Assembly: GCA_024638445.1 (NCBI GenBank)
Contig: JAHEKH010000089.1
Location: forward strand, 1 to 10,711
Source of the DNA: Gammaproteobacteria bacterium
GTDB taxonomy: Bacteria; Pseudomonadota; Gammaproteobacteria; Steroidobacterales; JABDKV01
DNA length: 10,711 bases
Reading direction: 5' to 3'
The notes under the pieces are model-generated. The model saw only the letters and a list, made by a program, of their open reading frames with translations, had not been told where the DNA came from and did not search any database. The first letter of the stretch is position 1, and every line of letters starts with the position of its first letter. The translations under genes and the position numbers were made by a program. Positions 1 through 10,335 of the stretch are shown here, piece by piece.

Positions 1-1527
1 GATTGCTGCCACTCCGGCACCATGACCCGCGACGTGTTTGGCGACGCGGTGCGCGCCGCGCCCCCGGACAAACGGTCCGTGACAGCGATGGATCTTCCGG
101 AAACCCCCGCCGATACGCGCGATATCGATTCCGAAAAACTCAGCGAGGCCGGCTGGCTGGAAATCAGCGATTCCTACGTGGTGGTCTCCGGCTGCCGCGA
201 CAACGAGCTGTCGCATGAATTTCCCAAGCAGGATCCGGACAACCGAAACGGCGCGCTGACTCACTTCTTTACCGAAGCCCTGACGCGCGCAACACCCGGT
301 ACCACCTATCGCGACGCCTTCGAATATGCCCGCGGCAGGATCAATGCGAAATGGTCCGACCAGAACCCCCAGATCGACGGCAAGCTGGATCGCGAAATTT
401 TCGGCGTGAAAGACATCGAGCCGATTCGCTATGTCGCAGTGAAATCGGTCGACGGCGACAAAGTCGTGCTCAACGGCGGCAAGGCGCATGGCCTGTATCC
501 CAACTCACAGTGGACCGTCTATCCGCCCGGCACCAAGAGCACCGACGGCGTCGACAGCCTGGCCGTGCTGGAAATCGAAAAAGTCGGGGCCCTGACCTCG
601 AGCGCCGTGGTGCGCGAAACGCATGGCGAGGTCGTGCCGATGTCGCGCTGCGTGGAGACCGCCACGGCGGCCGAAAAATTCCAGCTGGGCATCGACCTCT
701 CCGCACTGCCTGAAGCCCAGCGCACAGCGCTGGCCGGCGGGATCGAGGAATCGAAACTACTGACCAGCGATGCCGTGGACAACGCGCTCCGGGTCTACGT
801 GCTCGAACCCCGCAGCTCGGCCGGTCCCGATGACCCTGTTCCCCAGGTTGAAAAAGTCGATACCCCGACCTTCGCCGTCGTTGACAACGGCGGGCAGCTG
901 ACCATGCCGCTGCACCCGGTGGCCGAGGACGGCATCGCCAAAACGCTGGTCAGCAACTTCGAAACAATCGCCCGCTACCGCAATGCGCTGGCGCTCGACA
1001 ACGCGGACAGCAAGCTCGATGTTGAGTTCAACCTGTACCGCGAGGTCGATGGCAAGTGGGAGCTGGCCAACGGCGGCAACAGCGTTTTCACCGAGGGTGA
1101 GCGGCTGTCTATCGAGGTCATCAACAACGAGAGCAAGCCGATCCATTTCTGCATTCTCGATTTCGAGCTGACCCGGGCAATTTCAGGGTTTTATCCACAG
1201 AGCCTCACCAGCGAGATGCTGGCGGCCGGCAAGAAGCTGGAGCTCGGCCGGGAGGAAAACGTTACTGCCTACATGAATCCGAAAGAGGAATACCCCGAGG
1301 ACCGGGGCGTAGAAACACTCAAGATCTTCGTTACTACCGACGAGTCCGATTTCCGCTGGCTCCAGCAGGGTGCCACCCGCGATGTCGGCCTCAGCGCACT
1401 GCAGAAAGAGTTCATGGCCGCCTATGGCGGTCCGGCGACCCGCGCGGTGAAGATCGAGAAGAAAAAAGCCTCTGATGACTGGAAGTCAATCAACCGTTCG
1501 TTCCATATCAAGAGACGTTTAGTCTGA
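1..1527 (+). CDS. Caspase-like peptidase (C14 / metacaspase-type catalytic domain), 5'-truncated by the window edge, with a ~490-aa C-terminal extension of unknown function
   Basis: Frame 1 is open from nt 1 (D-C-C-H-S-G-T-M...), so the ORF listed as 22..1527 continues upstream. DCCHSG at nt 1-18 matches the metacaspase/paracaspase catalytic-Cys signature D[AS]CHSG. The downstream motif VSGCRDNELSHE (about nt 187-219) resembles the metacaspase SGC(Q/K)DDQTS(A/Q)D motif. Stop codon TGA at 1525-1527. The remainder has no recognisable motif. Confidence 0.65.
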   Translation, partial: DCCHSGTMTRDVFGDAVRAAPPDKRSVTAMDLPETPADTRDIDSEKLSEAGWLEISDSYVVVSGCRDNELSHEFPKQDPDNRNGALTHFFTEALTRATPGTTYRDAFEYARGRINAKWSDQNPQIDGKLDREIFGVKDIEPIRYVAVKSVDGDKVVLNGGKAHGLYPNSQWTVYPPGTKSTDGVDSLAVLEIEKVGALTSSAVVRETHGEVVPMSRCVETATAAEKFQLGIDLSALPEAQRTALAGGIEESKLLTSDAVDNALRVYVLEPRSSAGPDDPVPQVEKVDTPTFAVVDNGGQLTMPLHPVAEDGIAKTLVSNFETIARYRNALALDNADSKLDVEFNLYREVDGKWELANGGNSVFTEGERLSIEVINNESKPIHFCILDFELTRAISGFYPQSLTSEMLAAGKKLELGREENVTAYMNPKEEYPEDRGVETLKIFVTTDESDFRWLQQGATRDVGLSALQKEFMAAYGGPATRAVKIEKKKASDDWKSINRSFHIKRRLV

Positions 1528-1537
1528 AAGGCCCGTC

Positions 1538-3763
1538 ATGAAGTACCAGGACTTCCGTATTCGTATCGAGTCGAAGACCGATACCGGATTTAACGTGAGT
1601 GTCGAATCCCCGGCTGGCAACGCCGATGAACATATCGTCCTGCCGTTCGATATCGATGAGGCAATGAAACAGTTTCACCAGATGGGGCTGGTTGTGCGTG
1701 GCGCCGCCAGCCGCAAGGTAGAAATCGACGGCCCGGAGCCAATGAAACCCTCCGAGTTCGGCGACCAGCTGTTTCGCGCGTTGTTTACCGGCCGTGTCGG
1801 CAAGATGTACAACGCCATGTGCCGTGATCTGCAGGATCCTGAGATGGGGCTGCGCATAAACCTTCACCTGAACCTGAACGACGCCGGTGTCGGCGCGTTG
1901 GCCGGCGTTCCATGGGAGTTCGTCTACGACGCCGACACAATGGATTATCTGAACCTGAGCCGCCAGACGCCCGTCATTCGTTATCTTGACGTGCAGCGGC
2001 CAAACACGGTCCAGCCGCTAACCGGCAAGCTCAAGGTGCTGGTCGTGATGTCCAGCCCGAAAGGTGAGCACGCCCTGGACCTCGACAAGGAACGCAAGCT
2101 CATCGAGTCGATCTGGTCGGGCGACGATAACGTCGAGCTGACCATCAAGGAAAACCCCACACCGAACAAGCTGCGTTCCTGGCTGACCAACGACAATTAC
2201 CACGTGCTGCACTACATGGGGCACGGCGCCCATGACGACAAGACCGGGGTAGGCGCCCTGGTCCTGGAGGACGATGACGGCAATGCCAACCTGCTCGACG
2301 CTGAAACGCTGGGCACATTCCTGCGTAACGCGCCGACCATCCGCCTGGCGTTCCTCAACGCGTGTGACCTGGCCAAGACCGGTGAAGACACGCCGTTTTC
2401 CGGCGTTGCCAACCGGCTGGTGATGGCCGGTCTGCCGGCGGTCGTAGCGATGCAGTTCCCGATTTCAGACGATGCCGCCATCGCTTTCGCGCGCACCTTT
2501 TATACGCGGCTGGAGAAAGGCCAGCCGGTCGACGAGGCGGTAGCCCATGGCCGGACCGCTATCCTGGCCGACAAGCCGGGCTCCATGGAATGGGGCACGC
2601 CGGTGCTGTACATGCGCACGCCGGACGGCCGTCTCTTCGAGCGCCCGGGCGTTGAACCACCGGCAGCGGACCCGGCCGCGGCGGCGGAAACCGCTCCGGC
2701 CCCGCCAGCGCCTGACGGCTCGGTTTCGGTGCCGAAAAAAGGCATCGGCGCGGCGGCCGGCATCCTGGTGCTGCTGGCAGCCATTGCGGCCGGCGCGTTC
2801 TTCATGCTCGGCGGCAAGAAGGTGCCGCTGGATTTCGAGAGCGAGGAAATCCAGGCCTACATCGATGAACCGGTCGAAGTGAAGTTCATCGCGACCAACA
2901 ACCCGGAAGGCACGGCCCACCTGGACCAGTACAACGTGTCGGTGGCCGCACCCAACGCTACCGGCCTCGAAGTTTCCGACACCGACGAGATCAACGGTTA
3001 CTGGCGCACGATGATTACGCCGCGGGAGACCGGTGATTACGAGATCATTGCCACCCCGGTAGACGTCAACAAGCCTGATGCCGAGCCCCGCAAGAAATCA
3101 GCAAAACTGGTGGTCAGCATCAATCCGGAAGTACAGGCGGCTTACGAGACGGCTATGGCCAGCGTCAGTACCCCGGCTGTGGCCACCGAAGACCTGATAG
3201 AGACATTGACGGGTCTCGAAGCCCGCGGTCTGAGCGCTGAAATGCGGTCGGAAATCGAGAAAACCCGGGCGGCGCTCGAAGAAGTGGTCGCCACGAAGAC
3301 ACTTGCGCGCAGCGGGTTTGCCAGCGACTCGAGCACCCTGGCCGAAAAAATTGCGGCGTACGTAGACTGGAAGACCCAGGTGCAGGCGACCCGCGATTTC
3401 GAACCCACCGCCAGCGCCTACCCGGAGGTCATGCAGGAACTCGAGACCCTGGCCGGGCGCATGGATGTCGCCGGGATGACGCTGTGCACGAAGGCACCGC
3501 CGTGCAGCGATGTATCGCGCGTGGCTTCGGGTGGCCGGGTCTACACGGTAATCGAGTACACACCGGCCGAAAAGGGCTCGAAGGTTGCGGTGCTGTATCA
3601 CGCGATGCCGGACAACGAGGTCAGGAAGACCCGCCAGATGACCCTGGCCGGCAATACCACTCACGCCGACTGGTCGACCGCGCCCGCGCGTGGCAGCTAC
3701 GAGGTGAGACTGTACAACGATGCCGGCGACCTGCTGGTCTCGAAGCCCCTCGAAATCTACTGA
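1538..3763 (+). CDS. CHAT-domain (caspase HetF-associated) protease-like protein with a single predicted transmembrane helix and a ~320-aa C-terminal domain
   Basis: ATG at 1538 lies 10 nt after the upstream stop and is preceded by AAAGG. The CHAT His motif LHYMGHG has its His codon at 2222-2224. The Cys motif LAFLNACDLAK has its Cys codon at 2363-2365. A Pro/Ala-rich linker (PPAADPAAAAETAPAPPAP) is followed by KKGIGAAAGILVLLAAIAAGAFFMLGGKK, a hydrophobic helix flanked by Lys on both sides at about nt 2741-2815. The C-terminal ~320 aa has alternating beta-like and helical stretches with no known motif. Confidence 0.7.
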   Translation: MKYQDFRIRIESKTDTGFNVSVESPAGNADEHIVLPFDIDEAMKQFHQMGLVVRGAASRKVEIDGPEPMKPSEFGDQLFRALFTGRVGKMYNAMCRDLQDPEMGLRINLHLNLNDAGVGALAGVPWEFVYDADTMDYLNLSRQTPVIRYLDVQRPNTVQPLTGKLKVLVVMSSPKGEHALDLDKERKLIESIWSGDDNVELTIKENPTPNKLRSWLTNDNYHVLHYMGHGAHDDKTGVGALVLEDDDGNANLLDAETLGTFLRNAPTIRLAFLNACDLAKTGEDTPFSGVANRLVMAGLPAVVAMQFPISDDAAIAFARTFYTRLEKGQPVDEAVAHGRTAILADKPGSMEWGTPVLYMRTPDGRLFERPGVEPPAADPAAAAETAPAPPAPDGSVSVPKKGIGAAAGILVLLAAIAAGAFFMLGGKKVPLDFESEEIQAYIDEPVEVKFIATNNPEGTAHLDQYNVSVAAPNATGLEVSDTDEINGYWRTMITPRETGDYEIIATPVDVNKPDAEPRKKSAKLVVSINPEVQAAYETAMASVSTPAVATEDLIETLTGLEARGLSAEMRSEIEKTRAALEEVVATKTLARSGFASDSSTLAEKIAAYVDWKTQVQATRDFEPTASAYPEVMQELETLAGRMDVAGMTLCTKAPPCSDVSRVASGGRVYTVIEYTPAEKGSKVAVLYHAMPDNEVRKTRQMTLAGNTTHADWSTAPARGSYEVRLYNDAGDLLVSKPLEIY

Positions 3764-4947: not shown

Positions 4948-6099
4948 TCAGGCGTCACCGTTGACGTTGATCTTGACGGTGTCCTGCAGCACGCCGTCCA
5001 GACCGCCGAAGACGGTCAGCTTGTCCACCTTCTCTGTCACCTTCTCGAGCGTCTCCAGCTCCTTCAGGCGCAGCAGTGCGGGGTGCTCACTCATCAGGCG
5101 GGCGGTGTTCAGCAGCGCACGGGTCGCTGCCGTCTCCTCACGGCGCTTGATGACGTTCGCCTGCGCGGCCTTCTCGGCCTCGACCACCTGGTTCAGAATT
5201 TCCTTCATGTCACCAGGCAGGATGACGTCCTTGACGCCGACGTTAGTCACCTCGATACCGTGTTCGCCCACCGCGGGCGCAACCGCCTCGTAGATCACGC
5301 GATCCAGCTCACCCTTGTTCGCCAGCAGCGTGTCCAGGGTGCGGGTACCGATGGCAGTACGCAGGGCGAACTGCAGCTCGCGGTACAGCTGGCCGGTGAC
5401 GTCCACCAGGTCCTTGTGGGCCTTCACCGGGTCGGCGATCTTGTAGGCAGCGGTCAGGTTCACGCGCAGCGTGACCTTGTCCTTCGTCAGGATTTCCTGG
5501 CCGCCCACGTCCATCGCCTGCAGGCGCAGGTCGACATGCGCGATCTTGATGTTGCGGTTGAACTTCCAGTACGCGTGCGTACCCGGCTGCAGTACGGTCT
5601 TGAACTCACCGTCCACGGTCAGCAGGCCGACGTGCTGGTCGGCCACCTCGGTGGCGACGATAAAGTTCGCAACCTGCACCAGGTCACGCGGGCGCGCACG
5701 GCCCAGGACGGCCGCCTTGCCACGGGGAATCTCGAACTCCTTTTCGATGTTCACCGTCTCGACGGCAATCTCCACCGGGCCCTTCCAGTACAGCTGGCGG
5801 GTGCCCGGGGCCAGGACCGTGTGCATCTTGCCGTTCTTGTAGACGAAGGCCACCTCGTAGTCGCCCAGGTCCACAATCTGGAAGTGCTGCTTGCACAGCT
5901 CGTGCTCGTCATCGATCAGGAAGTCGACGATACAGTGCTCGAACTCGGGCACCGTCAGGTCGTTGACCTCGACCGCGACACGCTTGAACGGTGCAATGAC
6001 CCAGCGGACGCCAGGGCGCAGGATCTGCGTGAACATGCCGTTCACGAAGACCAGGCCACGCTCGTGCTGGGCAATTACCTTGCGTGTAATACCAAACAT
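4948..6099 (-). CDS. SPFH / band-7 (stomatin-prohibitin-flotillin-HflK/C) family protein with an extra ~150-aa N-terminal region
   Basis: The C-terminal 230 aa carries the typical band-7 pattern (QEILTKDKVTLRVNLTAAYKI...GIEVTNVGVKDVILPGDMKEILNQVVEAEKAAQANVIKRREETA...) followed by a coiled-coil tail. I place the start at ATG 6099-6097 (MFGITRKV) because GAGGAGAGA lies 5-13 nt upstream. The longer ORF to 6162 has no RBS. Confidence 0.75.
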   Translation of the reverse strand: MFGITRKVIAQHERGLVFVNGMFTQILRPGVRWVIAPFKRVAVEVNDLTVPEFEHCIVDFLIDDEHELCKQHFQIVDLGDYEVAFVYKNGKMHTVLAPGTRQLYWKGPVEIAVETVNIEKEFEIPRGKAAVLGRARPRDLVQVANFIVATEVADQHVGLLTVDGEFKTVLQPGTHAYWKFNRNIKIAHVDLRLQAMDVGGQEILTKDKVTLRVNLTAAYKIADPVKAHKDLVDVTGQLYRELQFALRTAIGTRTLDTLLANKGELDRVIYEAVAPAVGEHGIEVTNVGVKDVILPGDMKEILNQVVEAEKAAQANVIKRREETAATRALLNTARLMSEHPALLRLKELETLEKVTEKVDKLTVFGGLDGVLQDTVKINVNGDA

Positions 6100-6313
6100 G
6101 GTGTCTCTCCTCTTGTTTTGGTTGGATGAAATGCGGCTGATAGCTGCGACCGGCCGCCGCAAAAAACCGGTCGGTCAATGCCCGTGGATCACCTCCTTTG
6201 CTTGCAGAAAATTTGGGCGCTGCAACCCAGGAACCCGTGTCGCGGCTTCGCCGCAGGTTCGCCTTACGTCAGTGCCCCGTGTGGAGCGGCTTCAGCCGCG
6301 CTTCTTTGGGTCT

Positions 6314-6369
6314 GGTTCCGGGATTGCGCGAAAGAGCTGCCGGCAGATCGCTCGCGCAATCCCGGAACC
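6314..6369. repeat. Perfect 17-bp inverted repeat (ggttccgggattgcgcg / cgcgcaatcccggaacc) enclosing an internal palindrome ctgccggcag; a 56-nt composite hairpin
   Basis: Read directly from the sequence. Arms at 6314-6330 and 6353-6369, with the 22-nt spacer itself palindromic. The mirror-image peptides in the + and - ORF tracks (FRDCAKELPADRSRNPGTRP and FRDCASDLPAALSRNPGTRP) are a by-product of this symmetry. Confidence 0.7.
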
Positions 6370-6672
6370 AGGCCAGCCGGAGATTGCGGAAGGGGTTAGC
6401 GGGGTCGGCCCCACACCCGTGCCGCGGGCCTGCCGTGCGATCCGGGAAGCCTGGTAACAGTGACGATGCGCTGCGCCGCACTCCTCCCTGAGTGATCGCA
6501 CGGGCCTTGTGCCCGGGTTGGCGCATCGTGACCGCTACCCGGCGACCCGGCCGGGCGGCCGGCGCAGGCGCACGCGGGTGCTGCGACACTGGCCGAAGGC
6601 CGGGCGTCGCTCGGGGCGTTCCCCTTTGGTTTCCAAATAACGGTTAACAGCCGTTGGCTTTTCGCCAGTAGA

Positions 6673-6745
6673 GTGGAAAAGGAGGATTCGAACCTCCGAC
6701 CCACGACGTTCAGGTCGTTGCTCTACCCATCTGAGCTATATTCCC
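6673..6745 (-). tRNA. Degenerate tRNA-like gene or pseudo-tRNA (anticodon region GAA, Phe-like) at the distal end of the array
   Basis: On the minus strand: GGGAATA TA GCTC AGATGGGTA GAGC A ACGAC CTGAAC GTCGT GGGTC GGAGG TTCGAAT CCTCC TTTTCCA C. The D-arm and T-arm are good. The anticodon loop is only 6 nt. There are two acceptor mismatches (G1:A72, T6:T67) and no encoded CCA. Confidence 0.4.
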
Positions 6746-6897
6746 GATTGGCGCTCTTCGCCGGACGCTCGCTCGGTATACGCCGTGCAACACACGCGTT
6801 GGCGCACCGGACCGGGTTCTCAGAACCGGAACCGCTGAACGATTGCCGTAGCAGAAAGAACTCTGTGTGGCCCGCCGCAGGAATCGGCACGCCGAAT

Positions 6898-6978
6898 TGG
6901 TAGCCGCCCCCGGATTCGAACCGGGAATCACCCGGGTCTGAGCCGGGCAGGTATACCCGAGGTTCCCTTCAGGCGGCC
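6898..6978 (-). tRNA. Aberrant tRNA-like gene, 81 nt, anticodon loop CUCAGAC (CAG, Leu-reading) but no long variable arm and a non-standard D-region
   Basis: Acceptor GGCCGCC / GGCGGCT (7 bp, one G:U), discriminator A, CCA encoded. T-arm CCCGG TTCGAAT CCGGG. Anticodon arm CCCGG CTCAGAC CCGGG. Between the acceptor and the anticodon stem lie 24 nt (TGAAGGGAACCTCGGGTATACCTG) that do not fold as a canonical D-arm. Confidence 0.45.
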
Positions 6979-6990
6979 AAAGAAATTAAC

Positions 6991-7066
6991 TGGATCACCG
7001 CCGAGGACTCGAACCCCGACCCCGGGGTTCAGGGCCCCGTGTCCTGCCCGGTTAGACGAGCGGTGA
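6991..7066 (-). tRNA. tRNA-Gln (anticodon CUG), 76 nt, CCA encoded, C33 instead of U33
   Basis: TCACCGC TC GTCT AACCGGGCA GGAC A CGGGG CCCTGAA CCCCG GGGT CGGGG TTCGAGT CCTCG GCGGTGA T CCA. All four stems pair. The anticodon loop CCCTGAA gives CUG at positions 34-36 but lacks the universal U33. Confidence 0.65.
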
Positions 7067-7071
7067 CTATC

Positions 7072-7146
7072 TGGAGCGGCCCGGGGGACTTGAACCCCCA
7101 CCCTCAACCTTCGCACGGTTGTGCTCTGCCCTTGAGCTTGAGCCGC
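7072..7146 (-). tRNA. tRNA-Arg (anticodon GCG), 75 nt, CCA encoded
   Basis: GCGGCTC AA GCTC AAGGGCA GAGC A CAACC GTGCGAA GGTTG AGGGT GGGGG TTCAAGT CCCCC GGGCCGC T CCA. Clean cloverleaf. Position 32 is G, which is unusual. Anticodon GCG rather than the ACG usual in bacteria. Confidence 0.65.
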
Positions 7147-7151
7147 ATGAG

Positions 7152-7229
7152 TGGTTGCCCGCGGTGGAATCGAACCACTGTGCGTTCCGCCTTGTAAGGG
7201 CGGTGTCCGGCCACCGGACCACGCGGGCT
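7152..7229 (-). tRNA. tRNA-Val (anticodon UAC)-like, 78 nt, CCA encoded, irregular
   Basis: AGCCCGC GTG GTCC GGTGGCC GGAC A CCGCC CTTACAA GGCGG AACGCAC AGTGG TTCGATT CCACC GCGGGCA A CCA. Irregularities: A1:A72 mismatch, 3 nt between the acceptor and D-stem, a 7-nt variable loop and an A49:C65 mismatch. Confidence 0.55.
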
Positions 7230-7277
7230 TTTCGGCTGTGCTCCTCACCGGTAGCGCATGCTAGAGTTTCTGCGCCG

Positions 7278-8765
7278 ATGAACAACGAACACGACCTCGA
7301 GCTGATCCTCAATTCCCAGGTGCCCCTGATCGTGGTGGAAACCCACGACGAACCACCGATGCTCGAGCTGCTCAAGCGCGTTTCGCTGAGCCGCAACGCC
7401 GCCGACTACCAGCCGGTTTTCCGCTGGACGATTACCGACGGGCTGCAACGCATGGAGCTGGCGCTGCAGGACGACACCGAGGAACTCGACCCCGAGCAGG
7501 TGTTGCGGCATATCCGCAGGACCCAGCAGACCGGCATCTACGTGCTGCTGGATTTCCACCCGTACCTGAAAGACCCGGTCAATATCCGGTTGCTGAAAGA
7601 CATCTGCATCGATTTTCCGCAGGCGAAGCGTCATGTGGTTTTGCTGAGTCACCAGCTGGAGCTGCCGCCTGAACTGGAGGCCTTTGGCGCGCGTTTCCAT
7701 ATCGCCCTGCCCAACGAGCGGCAGCGCAACGAGATCATTCGCGAAGTCGCCTCCGAATGGCGCGAGGCCAAAGGCAAGACCGTGTCGGCCGATCCCCGCG
7801 CGCTGGAGCTGCTGGTCACGAACCTCGCCGGCCTGACCGAATCCGATACCCGCCGGCTGGCGCGTAACGCCATTTTCAATGACGGCGCAATTACCCGCAG
7901 TGATCTCGAAGGCGTGATGGCGGCCAAGTACGAGCTACTCAACCGCGGCGGCGTGCTCGGCTTTGAATACGAAACCCACCGGTTCTCCGACGTGGCCGGG
8001 CTGAGCCGGCTGAAGGCCTGGCTGGAGCAACGCAAGCCGGCTTTTCTCGGCGAGGCGCAGGCCGCCGGGCTGGACGTGCCTCGCGGGGTGCTGCTGATCG
8101 GCGTGCAGGGCTGCGGCAAAAGCCTGACCGCGAAAGCAACTGCCGGTGTTTACGGCGTGCCGCTGCTGCGGCTGGACTTCGGCACGCTGTACAACAAGTA
8201 TCACGGCGAGAGCGAGCGCAACCTGCGCGAGTCCCTGAAAACCGCTGAAGTAATGGCGCCGTGCGTGCTGTGGATCGACGAGATCGAAAAGGGGTTGTCG
8301 ACCGGGCACGATTCCACCGGCACGACCCGGCGGGTGCTGGGCACTTTCCTGACCTGGCTGGCGGAAAAAAACTCGCCGGTGTTTGTCGTCGCGACCGCCA
8401 ACGACATCTCGGCGCTGCCACCCGAACTGGTGCGCAAGGGCCGTTTCGACGAGCTGTTCTTCGTCGATCTTCCCGATTCGGATGTCCGTATGGCCATTTT
8501 CGAGGTGCACCTGCGTTTTCGAGGGCACGACCCGGCGGCGTTCGACCTCGCAAGGCTCGAGGCTGCGGCGGACGGTTTTTCCGGCGCCGAAATCGAGCAG
8601 GGCATCGTATCCGCGCTCTATGCCGCGCATGCCAAGCGCGAACCTTTATCGACCGCACACATCCTGCGCGAACTGGAACGGACCCAGCCGTTATCGGTCG
8701 TTATGGCCGAGACCGTGCACGCACTGCGAAGCTGGGCCGACGGCCGTACGGTGCCGGGACACTGA
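7278..8765 (+). CDS. Classical-clade AAA+ ATPase (FtsH/Cdc48/Vps4-type module) with a ~270-aa N-terminal domain of unknown function
   Basis: Walker [14 protein letters not shown], Walker [11 protein letters not shown] and the second region of homology [29 protein letters not shown], followed by a helical lid. Start placed at ATG 7278, the first ATG clear of the tRNA genes. No clear SD (only 48 nt after tRNA-Val). The longer ORF from 7119 would overlap two tRNA genes. Confidence 0.75.
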
Positions 8766-8797
8766 GTCGCATCGCGGCCGGGCAGAACCTCCCTGCC

Positions 8798-8872
8798 TGG
8801 TGCGGACAGCGGGAGCTGAACCCGCGGCTCTGCACCGGCAACGCATTGCTCTCCCCTTAAGCGGACATCCGC
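8798..8872 (-). tRNA. tRNA-Gly (anticodon GCC)-like, 75 nt, CCA encoded, non-canonical
   Basis: GCGGATG TCC GCTT AAGGGGA GAGC A ATGCG TTGCCGG TGCAG AGCC GCGGG TTCAGCT CCCGC TGTCCGC A CCA. The acceptor and T-stem pair. The T-loop TTCAGCT is atypical. The anticodon stem is weak (A27:G43), and there is an extra nt at positions 8-9. Confidence 0.5.
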
Positions 8873-8881
8873 AGGTCTTGT

Positions 8882-8956
8882 TGGTGGACCGTGAAGGACT
8901 TCAACCCTCATCTCGCCGGGTAAGAACCGGGTGCTCTGGCATTGAGCTAACGATCC
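8882..8956 (-). tRNA. tRNA-Lys (anticodon CUU), 75 nt, CCA encoded
   Basis: GGATCGT TA GCTC AATGCCA GAGC A CCCGG TTCTTAC CCGGC GAGAT GAGGG TTGAAGT CCTTC ACGGTCC A CCA. The D-loop lacks G18G19. The T-loop has G56 instead of C56. C27:C43 mismatch. Confidence 0.6.
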
Positions 8957-8961
8957 GTATC

Positions 8962-9036
8962 TGGGGTGGCCGGCCGGGTTTGCACCGGCATCGTCCGGGT
9001 TCACGGCCCGGGGCTTTGCCTTTAAGCGACAGCCAC
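8962..9036 (-). tRNA. tRNA-His (anticodon GUG)-like, 75 nt, discriminator C, CCA encoded
   Basis: GTGGCTG TC GCTT AAAGGCA AAGC C CCGGG CCGTGAA CCCGG ACGAT GCCGG TGCAAAC CCGGC CGGCCAC C CCA. C33 replaces U33. T-loop TGCAAAC. There is no encoded G-1: the upstream base is T. Confidence 0.55.
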
Positions 9037-9041
9037 AGAGC

Positions 9042-9116
9042 TGGTCGGGGAAAAAGGAATCGAACCTTCTGTCACGCGGGCCCAAACCGCGAGCTTTGCC
9101 ACTAAGCTATTCCCCG
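9042..9116 (-). tRNA. tRNA-Pro (anticodon UGG), 75 nt, CCA encoded, near-canonical
   Basis: CGGGGAA TA GCTT AGTGGCA AAGC T CGCGG TTTGGGC CCGCG TGACA GAAGG TTCGATT CCTTT TTCCCCG A CCA. C1:G72 and G37 are as expected for Pro. Confidence 0.8.
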
Positions 9117-9123
9117 GGGAAAC

Positions 9124-9197
9124 TGGTTGCGCGAGCCGGAATCGAACCAGCGTCTCGCCCTTATCAGGGGCGTGCTCTTTCATTGAGCTATCGCGCT
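9124..9197 (-). tRNA. tRNA-Ile (anticodon GAU), 74 nt, CCA encoded
   Basis: AGCGCGA TA GCTC AATGAAA GAGC A CGCCC CTGATAA GGGCG AGAC GCTGG TTCGATT CCGGC TCGCGCA A CCA. The anticodon arm is nearly identical to enterobacterial tRNA-Ile(GAU). A1:A72 mismatch. The D-loop lacks GG. Confidence 0.65.
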
Positions 9198-9204
9198 CGA
9201 GATC

Positions 9205-9280
9205 TGGAGAACCGGACGGGACCCGAACCTGCAATCGCCAGGTTGAGAGCCTGGCCGCTTATCGGTTTGCGTACCGGTTC
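9205..9280 (-). tRNA. tRNA-Glu (anticodon CUC)-like, 76 nt, CCA encoded
   Basis: GAACCGG TA CGCA AACCGATA AGCG G CCAGG CTCTCAA CCTGG CGATT GCAGG TTCGGGT CCCGT CCGGTTC T CCA. 3-bp D-stem with no GG in the D-loop. The T-loop has G58. A51:C63 mismatch. Confidence 0.55.
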
Positions 9281-9286
9281 AGTGTT

Positions 9287-9361
9287 TGGCGCCCCGTGCG
9301 AGATTCGAACTCGCGTCTGGCGGATCGACAGTCCGCTGCTTTACGCTCAAGCTAACGAGGC
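9287..9361 (-). tRNA. tRNA-Asp (anticodon GUC), 75 nt, discriminator G, CCA encoded
   Basis: GCCTCGT TA GCTT GAGCGTA AAGC A GCGGA CTGTCGA TCCGC CAGAC GCGAG TTCGAAT CTCGC ACGGGGC G CCA. All stems pair, but the D-loop lacks GG. Confidence 0.7.
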
Positions 9362-9417: not shown

Positions 9418-9462
9418 TTTCAATCGCCCGGCCCGGTTCCCCGAACCAGCGGAGTGTTTCCA

Positions 9463-10335
9463 ATGTTCGCCAGAATCGATGCGCGTGTCCTGGTCGTGCT
9501 CGGCGCCGTGTTGTTTTCCACCGGTGGTGCCGCTATCAAGGGCACGACACTCACCGGTTGGCAGGTCGCCGCGTTCCGGTCCGGTGTAGCCTGCATCGCG
9601 CTCCTGGTCATGATTCCGTCGGTGCGCCGAGAGCTGTCCTGGCGGGTGCTGCCGGTGTCGGTCGTGTATGCGACGACGCTGGCGTTGTATGTGCTGGCCA
9701 ATAAGCTCACGACGGCCGCCAACACCATTTTTCTGCAGTCCACGGCGCCACTGTATCTGTTGTTTCTCGGGCCGTTGCTGCTGCGCGAGCATACGCAAAA
9801 ACGCGACTGGTGGTTCATCGTTGCCCTGGCAGGCGGACTGGCGCTGTTTTTTGTGTCGATCGACGCACCAACCGAAACCGCACCGGCACCGCTCGCGGGC
9901 AACCTGCTCGGCGGACTCGCGGGCTTTAGCTGGGCGCTGACACTGCTCGGGCTGCGCTGGCTGGCCATCAGTGCCGGACCCGGATCAGCCGCCGCGGCGG
10001 CCGCAACCGGGAATCTGCTGACCTTCCTCGTTTGTGCTTACTGGGCGTTTCCGGTCGTCGACAGCGCACCGCGCGACTGGCTGTTGATCGCTTACCTGGG
10101 TGTGTTCCAGATCGGGGTTGCGTACGTGCTGGTTACCGCCGCGATGCACCGGGTATCCGCCCTGGAGGCGTCGCTACTGATCCTGATCGAGCCGGTGCTG
10201 AATCCCGTCTGGGCGTGGTTGTTTCTCGATGAGACCCCCGGCCGGCTCGCGCTGCTCGCGGGATCTCTCATCCTGGTGAGTATTACCGTGAGGACGCTGC
10301 AGCAACGCCGGTTGCCGAACTCTGGCGAACCCTGA
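9463..10335 (+). CDS. EamA / DMT-superfamily (drug-metabolite transporter) membrane protein, ~10 TM helices
   Basis: 290 aa and almost entirely hydrophobic, with two EamA-like halves (LANKLTTAANTIFLQSTAPLYLLFLGPLLLRE and LVTAAMHRVSALEASLLILIEPVLNPVWAWLFLDE). GGAG lies 8 nt upstream of ATG 9463. The GTG at 9454 from the ORF track lacks spacing to that SD. Confidence 0.7.
   Translation: MFARIDARVLVVLGAVLFSTGGAAIKGTTLTGWQVAAFRSGVACIALLVMIPSVRRELSWRVLPVSVVYATTLALYVLANKLTTAANTIFLQSTAPLYLLFLGPLLLREHTQKRDWWFIVALAGGLALFFVSIDAPTETAPAPLAGNLLGGLAGFSWALTLLGLRWLAISAGPGSAAAAAATGNLLTFLVCAYWAFPVVDSAPRDWLLIAYLGVFQIGVAYVLVTAAMHRVSALEASLLILIEPVLNPVWAWLFLDETPGRLALLAGSLILVSITVRTLQQRRLPNSGEP

Follow-up and report, generated by a model that had tools for sequence, protein, structure and literature searches.

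A complete Ycf46-like AAA+ ATPase gene reversed within a long tRNA array, probably a lineage-specific accident of position

The window, that is the whole stretch of 10,711 nucleotides that was analysed, carries an array of tRNA genes on its minus strand and, lodged inside it, a protein gene on the plus strand (Table 1). Read in the direction of the tRNAs, the order is Asp-Glu(CTC)-Ile-Pro(TGG)-His-Lys(CTT)-Gly(GCC), an AAA+ ATPase gene in antisense orientation, Val(TAC)-Arg(GCG)-Gln(CTG)-Leu(CAG)-'Y' and an SPFH/slipin gene, which lies downstream of the array and points the same way as the tRNAs. Default ARAGORN settings returned nine tRNA genes, all on the minus strand. Rfam added tRNAs at 8801-8872 (34.5 bits) and 8965-9036 (50.9 bits); relaxed ARAGORN settings called Gly(GCC) at 8798-8872, His(GTG) at 8962-9036 and a further gene at 6898-6978 that could be identified as a tRNA-Leu(CAG) homologue by alignment to related arrays. 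The 12 tRNA genes between 6673 and 9361 have a density of 4.5 per kb, which rises to about 10 per kb if the ATPase gene is left out.

Table 1. Features of the array and of the embedded ATPase gene (positions in the window).
Feature	Position	Strand	Basis or remark
SPFH/slipin gene, 383 aa	4948..6099	-	Pfam Band_7, E = 2e-32; relatives at 78% identity
Downstream tRNA block, 5 genes	6673..7228	-	ARAGORN and Rfam
Odd tRNA-like 'Y', 6-nt anticodon loop	6673-6746	-	
tRNA-Leu(CAG)-like	6898-6978	-	
tRNA-Gln(CTG)	6991-7066	-	
tRNA-Arg(GCG)	7072-7146	-	
tRNA-Val(TAC)	7156-7228	-	
Divergent spacer, 49 nt, tRNA-Val 5' end to ATPase ATG	7229..7277	.	Sequence
AAA+ ATPase CDS, complete, 495 aa	7278..8765	+	ORF and translation; start backed by homologue alignment
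N-terminal domain, residues 1-235	7278..7982	+	Predicted AAA+-like alpha/beta plus lid fold, without Walker A
Classical AAA core, PF00004, residues 271-397	8088..8468	+	Pfam and motifs
Walker A GVQGCGKS	8100-8123	+	Translation; invariant in 34 homologues
Walker B LWIDE (VLWIDE)	8268-8282	+	Translation; invariant in 34 homologues
Convergent spacer, 32 nt, ATPase stop to tRNA-Gly 3' end	8766..8797	.	Sequence
Upstream tRNA block, 7 genes	8798..9361	-	ARAGORN and Rfam
tRNA-Gly(GCC)	8798-8872	-	
tRNA-Lys(CTT)	8882-8956	-	
tRNA-His(GTG)	8962-9036	-	
tRNA-Pro(TGG)	9042-9116	-	
tRNA-Ile(GAT)	9124-9197	-	
tRNA-Glu(CTC)	9205-9280	-	
tRNA-Asp(GTC)	9287-9361	-	

The ATPase reading frame opens with an ATG at 7278 and its stop codon ends at 8765. 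In an alignment of 34 sequences the homologues begin at M1, and M1, D6, L7 and E8 are invariant; 7278 is therefore the true start. A longer frame starting with TTG at 7119 was rejected, as it would cross tRNA genes. The protein matches phrog_8638 over its full length (E = 3e-112) and retains all residues that are invariant in the family. No Shine-Dalgarno sequence is present 4-18 nt before the start, as an earlier note on this DNA had claimed, and such a sequence is also missing in 63 of 83 homologues; its absence is a trait of the family. With a GC3 of 0.80 and a codon usage nearest to that of the neighbouring CHAT gene, the gene shows no sign of a recent foreign origin in its composition.

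The existence of the gene on the strand opposite to the tRNAs and its tight spacing had been described before and were confirmed, with one correction. The stop codon is indeed separated from the 3' end of tRNA-Gly (8798) by 32 nt, but the distance between the 5' end of tRNA-Val (7228) and the ATG is 49 nt and not 48. This 49-nt spacer contains a weak -10-like element (TAGAGT, 7262-7267) and has no significant structure upon folding (z = -1.3). The 32-nt spacer harbors a small hairpin, GGCAG-N7-CTGCC, without a T-run; its fold z-scores are -1.1 and 0.0, and it was not flagged in a terminator scan. The geometry bears out the proposal that array transcripts would cross the ATPase gene in antisense, and a scan of both strands between 6400 and 9600 revealed no sigma-70-like promoter. 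Any promoter of the ATPase gene must sit in the 49-nt spacer or within the tRNA-Val/Arg DNA. Scars of an insertion were not detected either: neither a target duplication nor terminal, direct or inverted repeats bracket the gene, and its 49-nt and 32-nt flanks do not resemble the DNA that borders ATPase homologues.

The protein is predicted to combine a degenerate N-terminal AAA module with an active classical AAA module. Pfam AAA (PF00004) matches residues 271-397 with 104 bits against a cut-off of 21 (E = 9.3e-30), and the sequence matches of this core in the PDB are p97/Cdc48 D1 and D2 (E ~1e-49). The pore loop KYHG (K307-Y308-H309-G310), the sensor-1 residue N375 and the arginines R386 and R389 in RKGRFD are present, conserved in the homologue alignment and aligned with their counterparts in p97/Cdc48 D1 and D2. 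Taken with the Walker A and B motifs, this set of pore loop 1, sensor-1 and arginine fingers in the second region of homology places the protein in the classical AAA clade. The N-terminal domain has no Pfam match, and a PDB profile search produced nothing beyond noise (E >= 0.2). An AlphaFold model of the full-length protein was poor (pLDDT 63); a model of the domain by itself was usable and supports the idea, raised in the earlier note, that the N-terminus may be a degenerate AAA-like fold. In this model the sequence ETHDEPP occupies the expected place of the P-loop. A search with the domain alone retrieved 1736 clusters, in which it is always N-terminal in proteins of about 500 aa or in fragments. 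The domain may thus be described, on the strength of the model, as a family-specific pseudo-ATPase module. A dead AAA module in the N-terminal half would make the ~495-aa proteins of this family minimal tandem AAA+ machines.

Two stacked AAA-fold modules are the hallmark shared with type II AAA+ unfoldases such as p97/Cdc48/VAT, NVL/Rix7, Drg1/AFG2 and Pex1/Pex6. The second module of the window protein, with its Walker A/B motifs, pore loop and arginine fingers, has its best sequence and structure matches in this group. Pex1/Pex6 and others have catalytically dead first rings too. Unlike these unfoldases, the window ATPase has no separate N-terminal substrate or adaptor domain, its first module is devoid of any nucleotide-binding motif and unrecognisable by sequence, and at 495 aa it is much shorter. 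By analogy, the protein would form a hexamer in which the second module uses ATP to exert a pull on a protein substrate or to remodel it, and the dead first module would act as a scaffold or adaptor platform. An unfoldase mechanism like that of p97/Cdc48, FtsH and PAN is most likely, as suggested by motifs and fold only.

The family of the ATPase is large: databases returned more than 8000 homologues, the best of them apart from the protein itself being 496 aa long and 67% identical, and homologues are collinear with the ATPase over residues 1-495. In species-representative genomes, 580 of 599 matched stretches were confirmed as relatives, and 78 plasmid records contain a homologue at >=80% coverage. 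When the exact ATPase sequence was looked up on other contigs, there was no match. The apparent best match, P0002 (775 aa), has a partial duplication and is probably misassembled; its neighbourhood is unrelated and free of tRNAs. Source databases tag close homologues as 'SpoVK/Ycf46/Vps4 family', and a Ycf46-like architecture, with an N-terminal domain of ~235 aa and one C-terminal AAA domain in a total of ~490-510 aa, is observed. Like the window protein, the Ycf46-type ATPases of cyanobacteria and plastids (slr0374, Synpcc7942_0417) are about 500 aa long and have an extended N-terminal region peculiar to the family ahead of a classical AAA domain at the C-terminus. AAA ATPases of cyanobacterial plasmids are similar over their full length, although at a low 32-37% identity over 96-99% of the protein. 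They are encoded in DUF1257(ycf35-like)-DUF2997-ATPase modules, whereas a Pfam scan of window ORFs revealed neither partner among the ORFs scanned; Woeseiaceae homologues also lack them and lie in the order NlpC/P60 - 426 aa - ATPase - FHA. The name Ycf46-like, which draws on the database labels and the plasmid homologues, is loose.

Whether homologues elsewhere accompany tRNA genes can be read from a scan of 5-10 kb on each side of about 100 of them (85 genome or metagenome loci, 11 viral contigs, 2 phages and 3 cyanobacterial plasmids). A tRNA array was encountered at none of these, and at 99 of 100 loci no tRNA adjoins the gene; single tRNA genes occur in the vicinity at two loci only (L033 and L085). 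Viral homologues exist in Corndog-like mycobacteriophages, Rhizobium phages, Aeromonas phages and IMG/VR, and tRNAs were missing near those of the Corndog-like, Rhizobium and Aeromonas phages and at the 11 IMG/VR loci. The possibility that the gene is a common paralogue had been set against its being part of an array element; the family is indeed common and large (~496 aa), and its contexts elsewhere are ordinary.

Relatives of the array were collected with a 22-nt probe taken from the window tRNA-Lys, which led to 80 metagenomic loci, nearly all of them tRNA arrays; one more was found through a relative of the window SPFH gene. The 81 loci comprise 370 kb and 929 tRNAs, show partial collinearity to the window and reach 23-35 tRNA genes per array. 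Many of their contig names point to sediment samples. The locus L102 has tRNAs ~90% identical to those of the window (89.9% for 74-231 against His and Lys, 90.9% for 285-361 against Arg) and an SPFH gene at 78%; in L105, identity to the window is 83-95% for the counterparts of Asp, Glu, His and Lys. SPFH/slipin homologues occur at 26 of the 81 loci, and further recurrent partners are the RNA-repair genes RtcB, HNH and Ro60. The recurrent protein partner of the array family is thus SPFH/slipin and not the ATPase. Neither the EamA gene nor the CHAT genes of the window were found at any of the 81 loci. The SPFH, RtcB, HNH, Ro60 and ABC_membrane_3 genes are on the tRNA strand; off-strand exceptions are unannotated ORFs in one gap of L110 and a doubtful ORF in a short gap of L171. 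Among the annotated genes found, the ATPase gene is the only one running against the tRNAs.

Such loci resemble the L-arrays (Santamaria-Gomez et al. 2021, PMC8421152) and array units (Tran et al. 2016, PMC4758250), in which supernumerary, non-housekeeping-looking tRNA genes with encoded CCA are densely packed, as in the window. Homologous arrays in numerous metagenomes have as many as 35 tRNA genes, genes are often gained and lost, and RtcB and HNH are embedded or linked, as in the relatives of the window array. The 80 loci that share the tRNA-Lys 22-mer and part of the gene order display the patchy sharing, indels and linked RNA-processing genes typical of L-arrays. A tRNA array unit is defined by >=20 tRNA genes at >=2 per kb (Tran et al. 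2016, PMC4758250); the window reaches this density but has only 12 genes, one of them degenerate. It is also split by a reverse protein gene of a kind absent from both studies (PMC8421152, PMC4758250), and the papers on tRNA arrays mention neither an ATPase nor an SPFH gene. Compared with plasmid and phage arrays, the DNA similarity is limited to single tRNAs: compared by blastn with phages and plasmids, the complete array yielded no homologous array, only matches such as a Stenotrophomonas phage tRNA-Ile (81%) and a Klebsiella phage tRNA-Arg (84%), and the Ile-Pro anticodon-arm pattern had 0 matches in viral contigs. Judging only from its non-canonical tRNAs, the window array is presumably supernumerary in its genome.

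The tight embedding had been taken as a hint that the ATPase is part of the array element, and its recurrence at the same position in homologous arrays had been proposed as a check. A tblastn search of the 81 loci (370 kb, E <= 1e-4) had zero matches and retrieved no fragment. The interval from Lys(CTT) to Val/Arg(GCG) is covered by 39 loci, and none has the ATPase gene: the largest tRNA-free gap is <=533 nt in 36 of them, too small for the gene, and the remaining three have a 1229-nt gap with small unrelated ORFs only. In L102, Lys is followed by a 55-nt spacer and Arg(GCG). Gly, Val and Gln are missing from this locus too, and a deletion would in principle be another way to explain its empty state. 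In the closest relatives that have a Gly-Val pair, the slot is occupied by a 76-78-nt tRNA-Met-like remnant, and this conserved element is retained in five spanning loci. Neither arrays with the ATPase nor ATPases with arrays recur. What the earlier note had observed is therefore confirmed; its interpretation is supported in part and mostly fails.

These data argue that the gene encodes an intact Ycf46-like ATPase and that its position is probably a lineage-specific accident, not that of a conserved array component. A long tRNA array that spreads horizontally and is prone to rearrangement would have received, in the slot between tRNA-Gly and tRNA-Val, a single reversed gene with almost no flanking DNA. 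Long arrays are known to contain insertions, deletions and embedded protein genes frequently (PMC8421152). Transcripts that read through from the upstream into the downstream tRNA block would be complementary to the ATPase mRNA, and the ATPase promoter would have to overlap the tRNA-Val region; for both reasons array and ATPase probably interfere rather than cooperate.

A possible functional tie, counter to an accident, is suggested by the TrcR regulon of Anabaena PCC 7120, which includes a long tRNA array, rtcB, the HNH gene all8564, the slipin gene alr0740, the DMT transporter gene alr1538 and all0263 for an 'AAA family ATPase', whose promoter is bound by TrcR (PMC10272220). The ATPase could then be functional cargo of a translational-stress module, recruited like RtcB, Ro60, HNH and slipin: Ycf46-type proteins would act in a spare-tRNA stress response, and the placement would tie ATPase expression to array induction, either positively or through antisense control. 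Array, slipin, EamA/DMT gene and ATPase indeed lie within 5.4 kb of the window, and RtcB and HNH are found in related arrays. In addition, array-embedded protein genes tend to be functionally related to arrays (PMC8421152), and, according to a preprint, the cyanobacterial ycf46 operon is expressed inversely to ribosomal genes and in a (p)ppGpp-dependent manner (bioRxiv 10.1101/2025.07.21.665879). We nevertheless consider recruitment as cargo unlikely, given the absence of the ATPase from all 81 related arrays, of arrays from the 5-10 kb on each side of about 100 homologues and of the window EamA gene from the 81 loci. The ATPase also faces against the tRNAs, unlike the annotated cargo genes, and 'AAA family ATPase' is for All0263 a generic label and not a family assignment. 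Whereas the Anabaena genes are dispersed and joined by a common repressor site, those of the window are joined by position, and no TrcR-like gene or site was identified there. A more elaborate version is rather improbable: long spare-tRNA arrays, RtcB, Ro60, slipins and Ycf46-type ATPases would all serve one response to translational stress and RNA damage, the window would be a rare instance in which gene order records this link and mirrors the TrcR regulon, and the reversal would provide reciprocal antisense control of array and ATPase.

An assembly chimera, in which an ATPase gene from elsewhere was joined into the array, is very unlikely. The window is a single 10.7-kb contig of a metagenome-assembled genome with no close database relative, and tRNA arrays are repeat-like and hard to assemble; however, two independent junctions 49 and 32 nt outside a complete ORF would be needed, they have no repeat in common, and the codon usage fits the neighbouring genes. 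It is highly improbable that the ATPase is ancestral to the array and was lost from the other sampled arrays. Frequent gene loss and gain in arrays and the clear deletion in the nearest relative, L102, are compatible with this, but it requires loss in all 39 informative loci across several array subtypes, with the 76-78-nt element kept in the slot at five of them and an ATPase fragment left nowhere in 370 kb, and collinearity suggests that the window is deep inside clades with intact empty sites. That the ATPase serves an anti-phage defence system, with the array as a back-up against tRNA-cleaving toxins, is scarcely credible: CHAT and caspase-like genes are nearby (22-3763) and IetA/IteA models match weakly, but the CHAT genes are 3.5 kb off, with other genes between, and absent from the 81 related loci, the family has ordinary chromosomal neighbourhoods, and assignment to IetAS/IteA was rejected, as the matches are confined to the generic AAA core (NCBIfam IteA, 69 bits against a cut-off of 510; PADLOC IetA, 77 bits, residues 261-473), the IetS protease partner was not found in the window, the only matches of defence-system models there were generic AAA and CHAT ones, and PADLOC 2.0 has no defence-system ATPase with this N-terminal domain.

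The placement thus represents a single, probably accidental insertion of a common gene into a known kind of array, and the embedding is no evidence of function. If the functional tie were true, the long-uncharacterised Ycf46 family would gain a testable role; should Anabaena all0263 prove to be a family member as well, the window would add a second and independent hint at that role. The array family itself is abundant in metagenomes and travels with SPFH/slipin and RNA-repair genes, which agrees with the cyanobacterial picture, where long tRNA arrays belong to a translational-stress regulon, and extends it to Gammaproteobacteria.

All tRNA genes of the window, which is a complete contig of a metagenome-assembled genome (10,711 bp, 63% G+C), lie on the minus strand. 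ARAGORN predicted nine of them with default settings, Rfam added two and relaxed ARAGORN a further one, a tRNA-Leu(CAG) homologue whose anticodon stem shows a compensatory change in the alignment. The tRNA strand reads Asp, Glu(CTC), Ile, Pro(TGG), His, Lys(CTT), Gly(GCC), the antisense ATPase gene, Val(TAC), Arg(GCG), Gln(CTG), Leu(CAG), the tRNA-like gene Y and the SPFH/slipin gene. Anticodons starting with C are favored here (Glu CTC, Lys CTT, Gln CTG, Leu CAG) and likewise in related arrays. The anticodon of tRNA-Arg(GCG) (7072-7146, minus strand), a gene that holds a fixed place in many related loci, is unusual because bacterial tRNA-Arg normally carries ACG (inosine-modified). Coordinates and strands confirm the claim of the earlier note that the ATPase gene is tightly set between two tRNA blocks on the opposite strand; its spacer of 32 nt toward Gly is correct, and the 48 nt given toward Val measure 49 nt. 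A longer ORF from TTG 7119 was rejected, as it overlaps tRNA genes and 33 homologues align from Met1; with M1, D6, L7 and E8 invariant in this alignment, the start is ATG 7278.

Related arrays were approached in two ways. The SPFH gene has relatives at 78% identity, one of them at locus L102, where a co-oriented upstream array of His, Lys(CTT), a 55-nt spacer, Arg(GCG), a Leu-like gene and Y is 82-99% identical to the window copies. The His-Lys block is contiguous with Arg(GCG) at this locus, which lacks Gly, ATPase and Val. A 22-nt tRNA-Lys probe matched 90 metagenomic stretches, 80 of which were examined. Together with L102 they comprise 369,792 nt and 929 tRNA genes (at least five in 68 and at least ten in 44 of the 81 loci), in orders partly collinear with the window, such as ...Asp Glu(CTC) Ile Pro(TGG) His Gly Met Lys Val(TAC)... 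Arg(GCG) Gln(CTG) Leu(CAG) or ...Lys Ser Gly(GCC) Val(CAC) Arg(GCG) Gln(CTG)... In 39 loci the sequence reaches from Lys(CTT) to the following Val or Arg(GCG); 36 of these have no tRNA-free gap above 533 nt in this interval, and the remaining three have a 1229-nt gap with only small unrelated ORFs. Adjacent Gly(GCC)-Val pairs at five loci enclose a conserved element of 76-78 nt with a 7-bp acceptor-like stem (CGTGAGG/CCTCACG), a 7-nt loop containing CAT and a 3' ACCA, which looks like a degenerate tRNA-Met(CAT)-like gene missed by ARAGORN. The window ATPase fills exactly the slot of this element. A recurrence of the ATPase in homologous arrays is refuted, as tblastn found no match at E <= 1e-4 in any of the 81 related loci.

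Coordinates of features in the window and at compared loci (L-numbers)
Feature	Locus	Position	Strand	Remark
501-aa protein	window	22-1527	+	weak caspase-like match
741-aa CHAT-domain protein	window	1538-3763	+	predicted membrane segment; adjacent to 501-aa gene
SPFH/slipin gene	window	4948-6099	-	
Gene Y	window	6673-6746	-	directly upstream of SPFH gene; 6-nt anticodon loop
Further tRNA gene	window	6898-6978	-	relaxed ARAGORN
ATPase CDS	window	7278 (ATG)-8765 (end of stop codon)	+	495 aa
tRNA genes added by Rfam	window	8801-8872, 8965-9036	-	Gly(GCC), His(GTG) by relaxed ARAGORN
EamA/DMT transporter gene	window	9454-10335	+	divergent from array start
Gly-Val element	L105; L117	1608-1682; 228-300		also in spacers of L153, L165, L168
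Y-homologous slots	L102; L128; L116; L118; L107; L133	561-633; 6962-; 2323-; 1769-; 1604-; 2067-		
SPFH-bearing loci	L102, L107, L111, L115, L116, L118, L119, L123, L127-L129, L133, L135, L138, L143, L146, L152-L154, L160, L163, L164, L167, L168, L177, L183			
Embedded RNA-repair genes (RtcB, HNH, Ro60)	L113; L140; L119; L111; L115; L174	1470-5139;;; 2639-4491; 2185-9142; 2178-4711		oriented coordinates
Cyanobacterial plasmid modules	L195; L196; L197	7046-9623; 5720-9527; 6168-9527		

The ATPase itself belongs to a large family. More than 8000 database proteins match it, the nearest being 67% identical (496 aa), and its nearest relatives reside mostly in Woeseiaceae and other Gammaproteobacteria. 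A survey with a single genome for each species gave 599 matched stretches, of which 580 encode relatives; the best 80 share 49-66% identity and extend from Woeseiaceae to Shewanella, Alcanivorax and Allochromatium. At these 80 loci and five others, scanned up to 6-10 kb per side, there is no tRNA array, and single tRNA genes occur at only two (L033, L085). Arrays are likewise missing near homologues at 11 viral-contig loci, in two phage genomes and on three cyanobacterial plasmids; no tie between ATPase and tRNA arrays was thus seen at the loci scanned. The lack of a Shine-Dalgarno sequence, correctly remarked upon before, is a family habit shared by 63 of 83 homologues. In Woeseiaceae (L002-L005, around 6001-7491) the ATPase gene lies between that of a 426-aa protein without Pfam match, itself preceded by an NlpC/P60 peptidase gene, and that of an FHA/Yop-YscD_cpl protein; these neighbors are conserved and may point to native partners. 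Cyanobacterial plasmids, including pCC7120alpha, carry a conserved module of DUF1257, which is ycf35 (PMC4284462), DUF2997 and a full-length ATPase homologue, in one case adjoined by GrpE and Hsp70 genes. The top-scoring homologue, P0002 (775 aa; L001 2302-4629), contains the ATPase sequence 1.5 times (residues 1-386, then 100-495), as the result of either an assembly artefact or a tandem duplication of part of the gene.

The Pfam AAA match covers residues 271-397 (E = 9.3e-30), and the alignment with the 33 homologues shows no variation in Walker A (GVQGCGKS), Walker B (LWIDE), pore loop KYHG, sensor-1 asparagine or RKGRFD arginines. Among proteins of solved structure, both p97/Cdc48 rings come closest in sequence. 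Residues 1 to ~235 gave no sequence match in Pfam or in a PDB profile search. Used alone, the N-domain retrieved a family that forms 1736 clusters at the 50% identity level, in which it is always N-terminal, in proteins of about 500 aa or fragments. The full-length predicted model aligns with tandem AAA proteins over more than 510 columns, a profile comparison pairs a 23-residue segment of the N half with a 29-residue segment of the C half (E = 0.008), and two weak DNA repeats, ~753-768 nt apart, encode strands matched between the halves. These data bear out the earlier suspicion of a degenerate N-terminal AAA fold and support a minimal tandem AAA+ protein with a dead first module devoid of a P-loop. 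Judging from its motifs, the ATPase would be hexameric and thread or remodel a substrate, by analogy resembling a p97-type machine whose first ring is dead. Architecture and cyanobacterial homologues support its labeling as a further member of the poorly characterized Ycf46-like family. Since the gene is intact, retains every family-invariant residue and resembles neighboring genes in GC3 (0.80) and codon usage, it probably functions in this genome and merely ended up at an unusual site.

Of the 81 loci, 26 have SPFH homologues (35-78% identity), without exception co-directional with the tRNA genes and placed after or inside the array. The tRNA-array papers compared make no mention of this gene; slipin alr0740 is under TrcR control along with the Anabaena array (PMC10272220). 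Y-matching genes occupy the same place in several relatives (79-86% identity) and are called Pro(CGG), Thr(TGT), His(GTG), Leu(GAG) or unassigned, and an Asn(GTT) gene stands in this position at L133, L146 and L177. Because the Y-SPFH pair moves within arrays as one unit, Y may serve as a leader or a signal for processing instead of taking part in decoding. Other genes in the gaps encode RtcB (E = 2e-134), an HNH endonuclease, Ro60 (TROVE and vWA), an ABC_membrane_3 protein and a YgbA_NO protein. By ORF reading, L111 and L115 share the order array, HNH, 352 aa, tRNA-Ile, SPFH, RtcB, nucleotidyltransferase-like and phosphoesterase-like. Readable embedded ORFs follow the tRNA strand; exceptions are ORFs without annotation in one gap of L110 and a questionable one in a short gap of L171. 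The window ATPase runs against its tRNA genes. In content the related arrays agree with published long tRNA arrays, which are horizontally spread, undergo frequent indels and have HNH and RtcB linked or embedded (PMC8421152). The window array is a short relative of these and falls below the 20 genes that Tran et al. require (PMC4758250).

That the ATPase is functional cargo of the array is unlikely. Anabaena TrcR represses a long tRNA array together with rtcB, HNH all8564, slipin alr0740, DMT transporter alr1538 and an 'AAA family ATPase', all0263 (PMC10272220), a preprint describes ycf46 operon expression as dependent on (p)ppGpp and anticorrelated with ribosomal genes (bioRxiv 10.1101/2025.07.21.665879), and the window unites array, slipin, EamA/DMT gene and ATPase. 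However, ATPase and EamA gene recur in none of the 81 related loci, and the label of all0263 is generic and does not specify the family. An assembly chimera is very improbable, as it would require two precise junctions around the whole ORF and the codon usage matches that of the neighbors. Descent from an ancestral array gene lost elsewhere can be given scarcely any weight, given the many independent losses needed and the lack of ATPase remnants in related arrays. Membership in a defense system is least credible of all, since the AAA and CHAT matches are generic, no partner gene was found, PADLOC returned only partial SAVED_CHAT and BovA matches for the caspase-like/CHAT pair, and this pair does not recur near the 81 related arrays.

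The best explanation is that the ATPase gene entered a rearrangement-prone array in this lineage only, by insertion or by replacing the Met-like element. The proposal that it is a component of the tRNA-array element is not upheld, as the gene is absent from the 81 related loci and its family is common elsewhere, the two outcomes that the earlier note had named as refuting it. Neither a repeat search nor comparison with homologue flanks revealed insertion scars around the gene. The placement, though unusual, is a single case. No consensus promoter or terminator was found on either strand between 6400 and 9600, and folding of both ATPase junctions gave no significant structure. From the geometry, transcription of the downstream tRNA block would either cross 1.5 kb antisense to the ATPase or start at a weak internal promoter, and the ATPase promoter would necessarily overlap tRNA-Val DNA. 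If the -10-like TAGAGT at 7262-7267 is used, the ATPase mRNA would be nearly leaderless. Such a layout would make mutual interference between array and ATPase more likely than cooperation. Leads worth following are the linkage of slipin to tRNA arrays and a possible tie of Ycf46-type ATPases to a translational-stress regulon.
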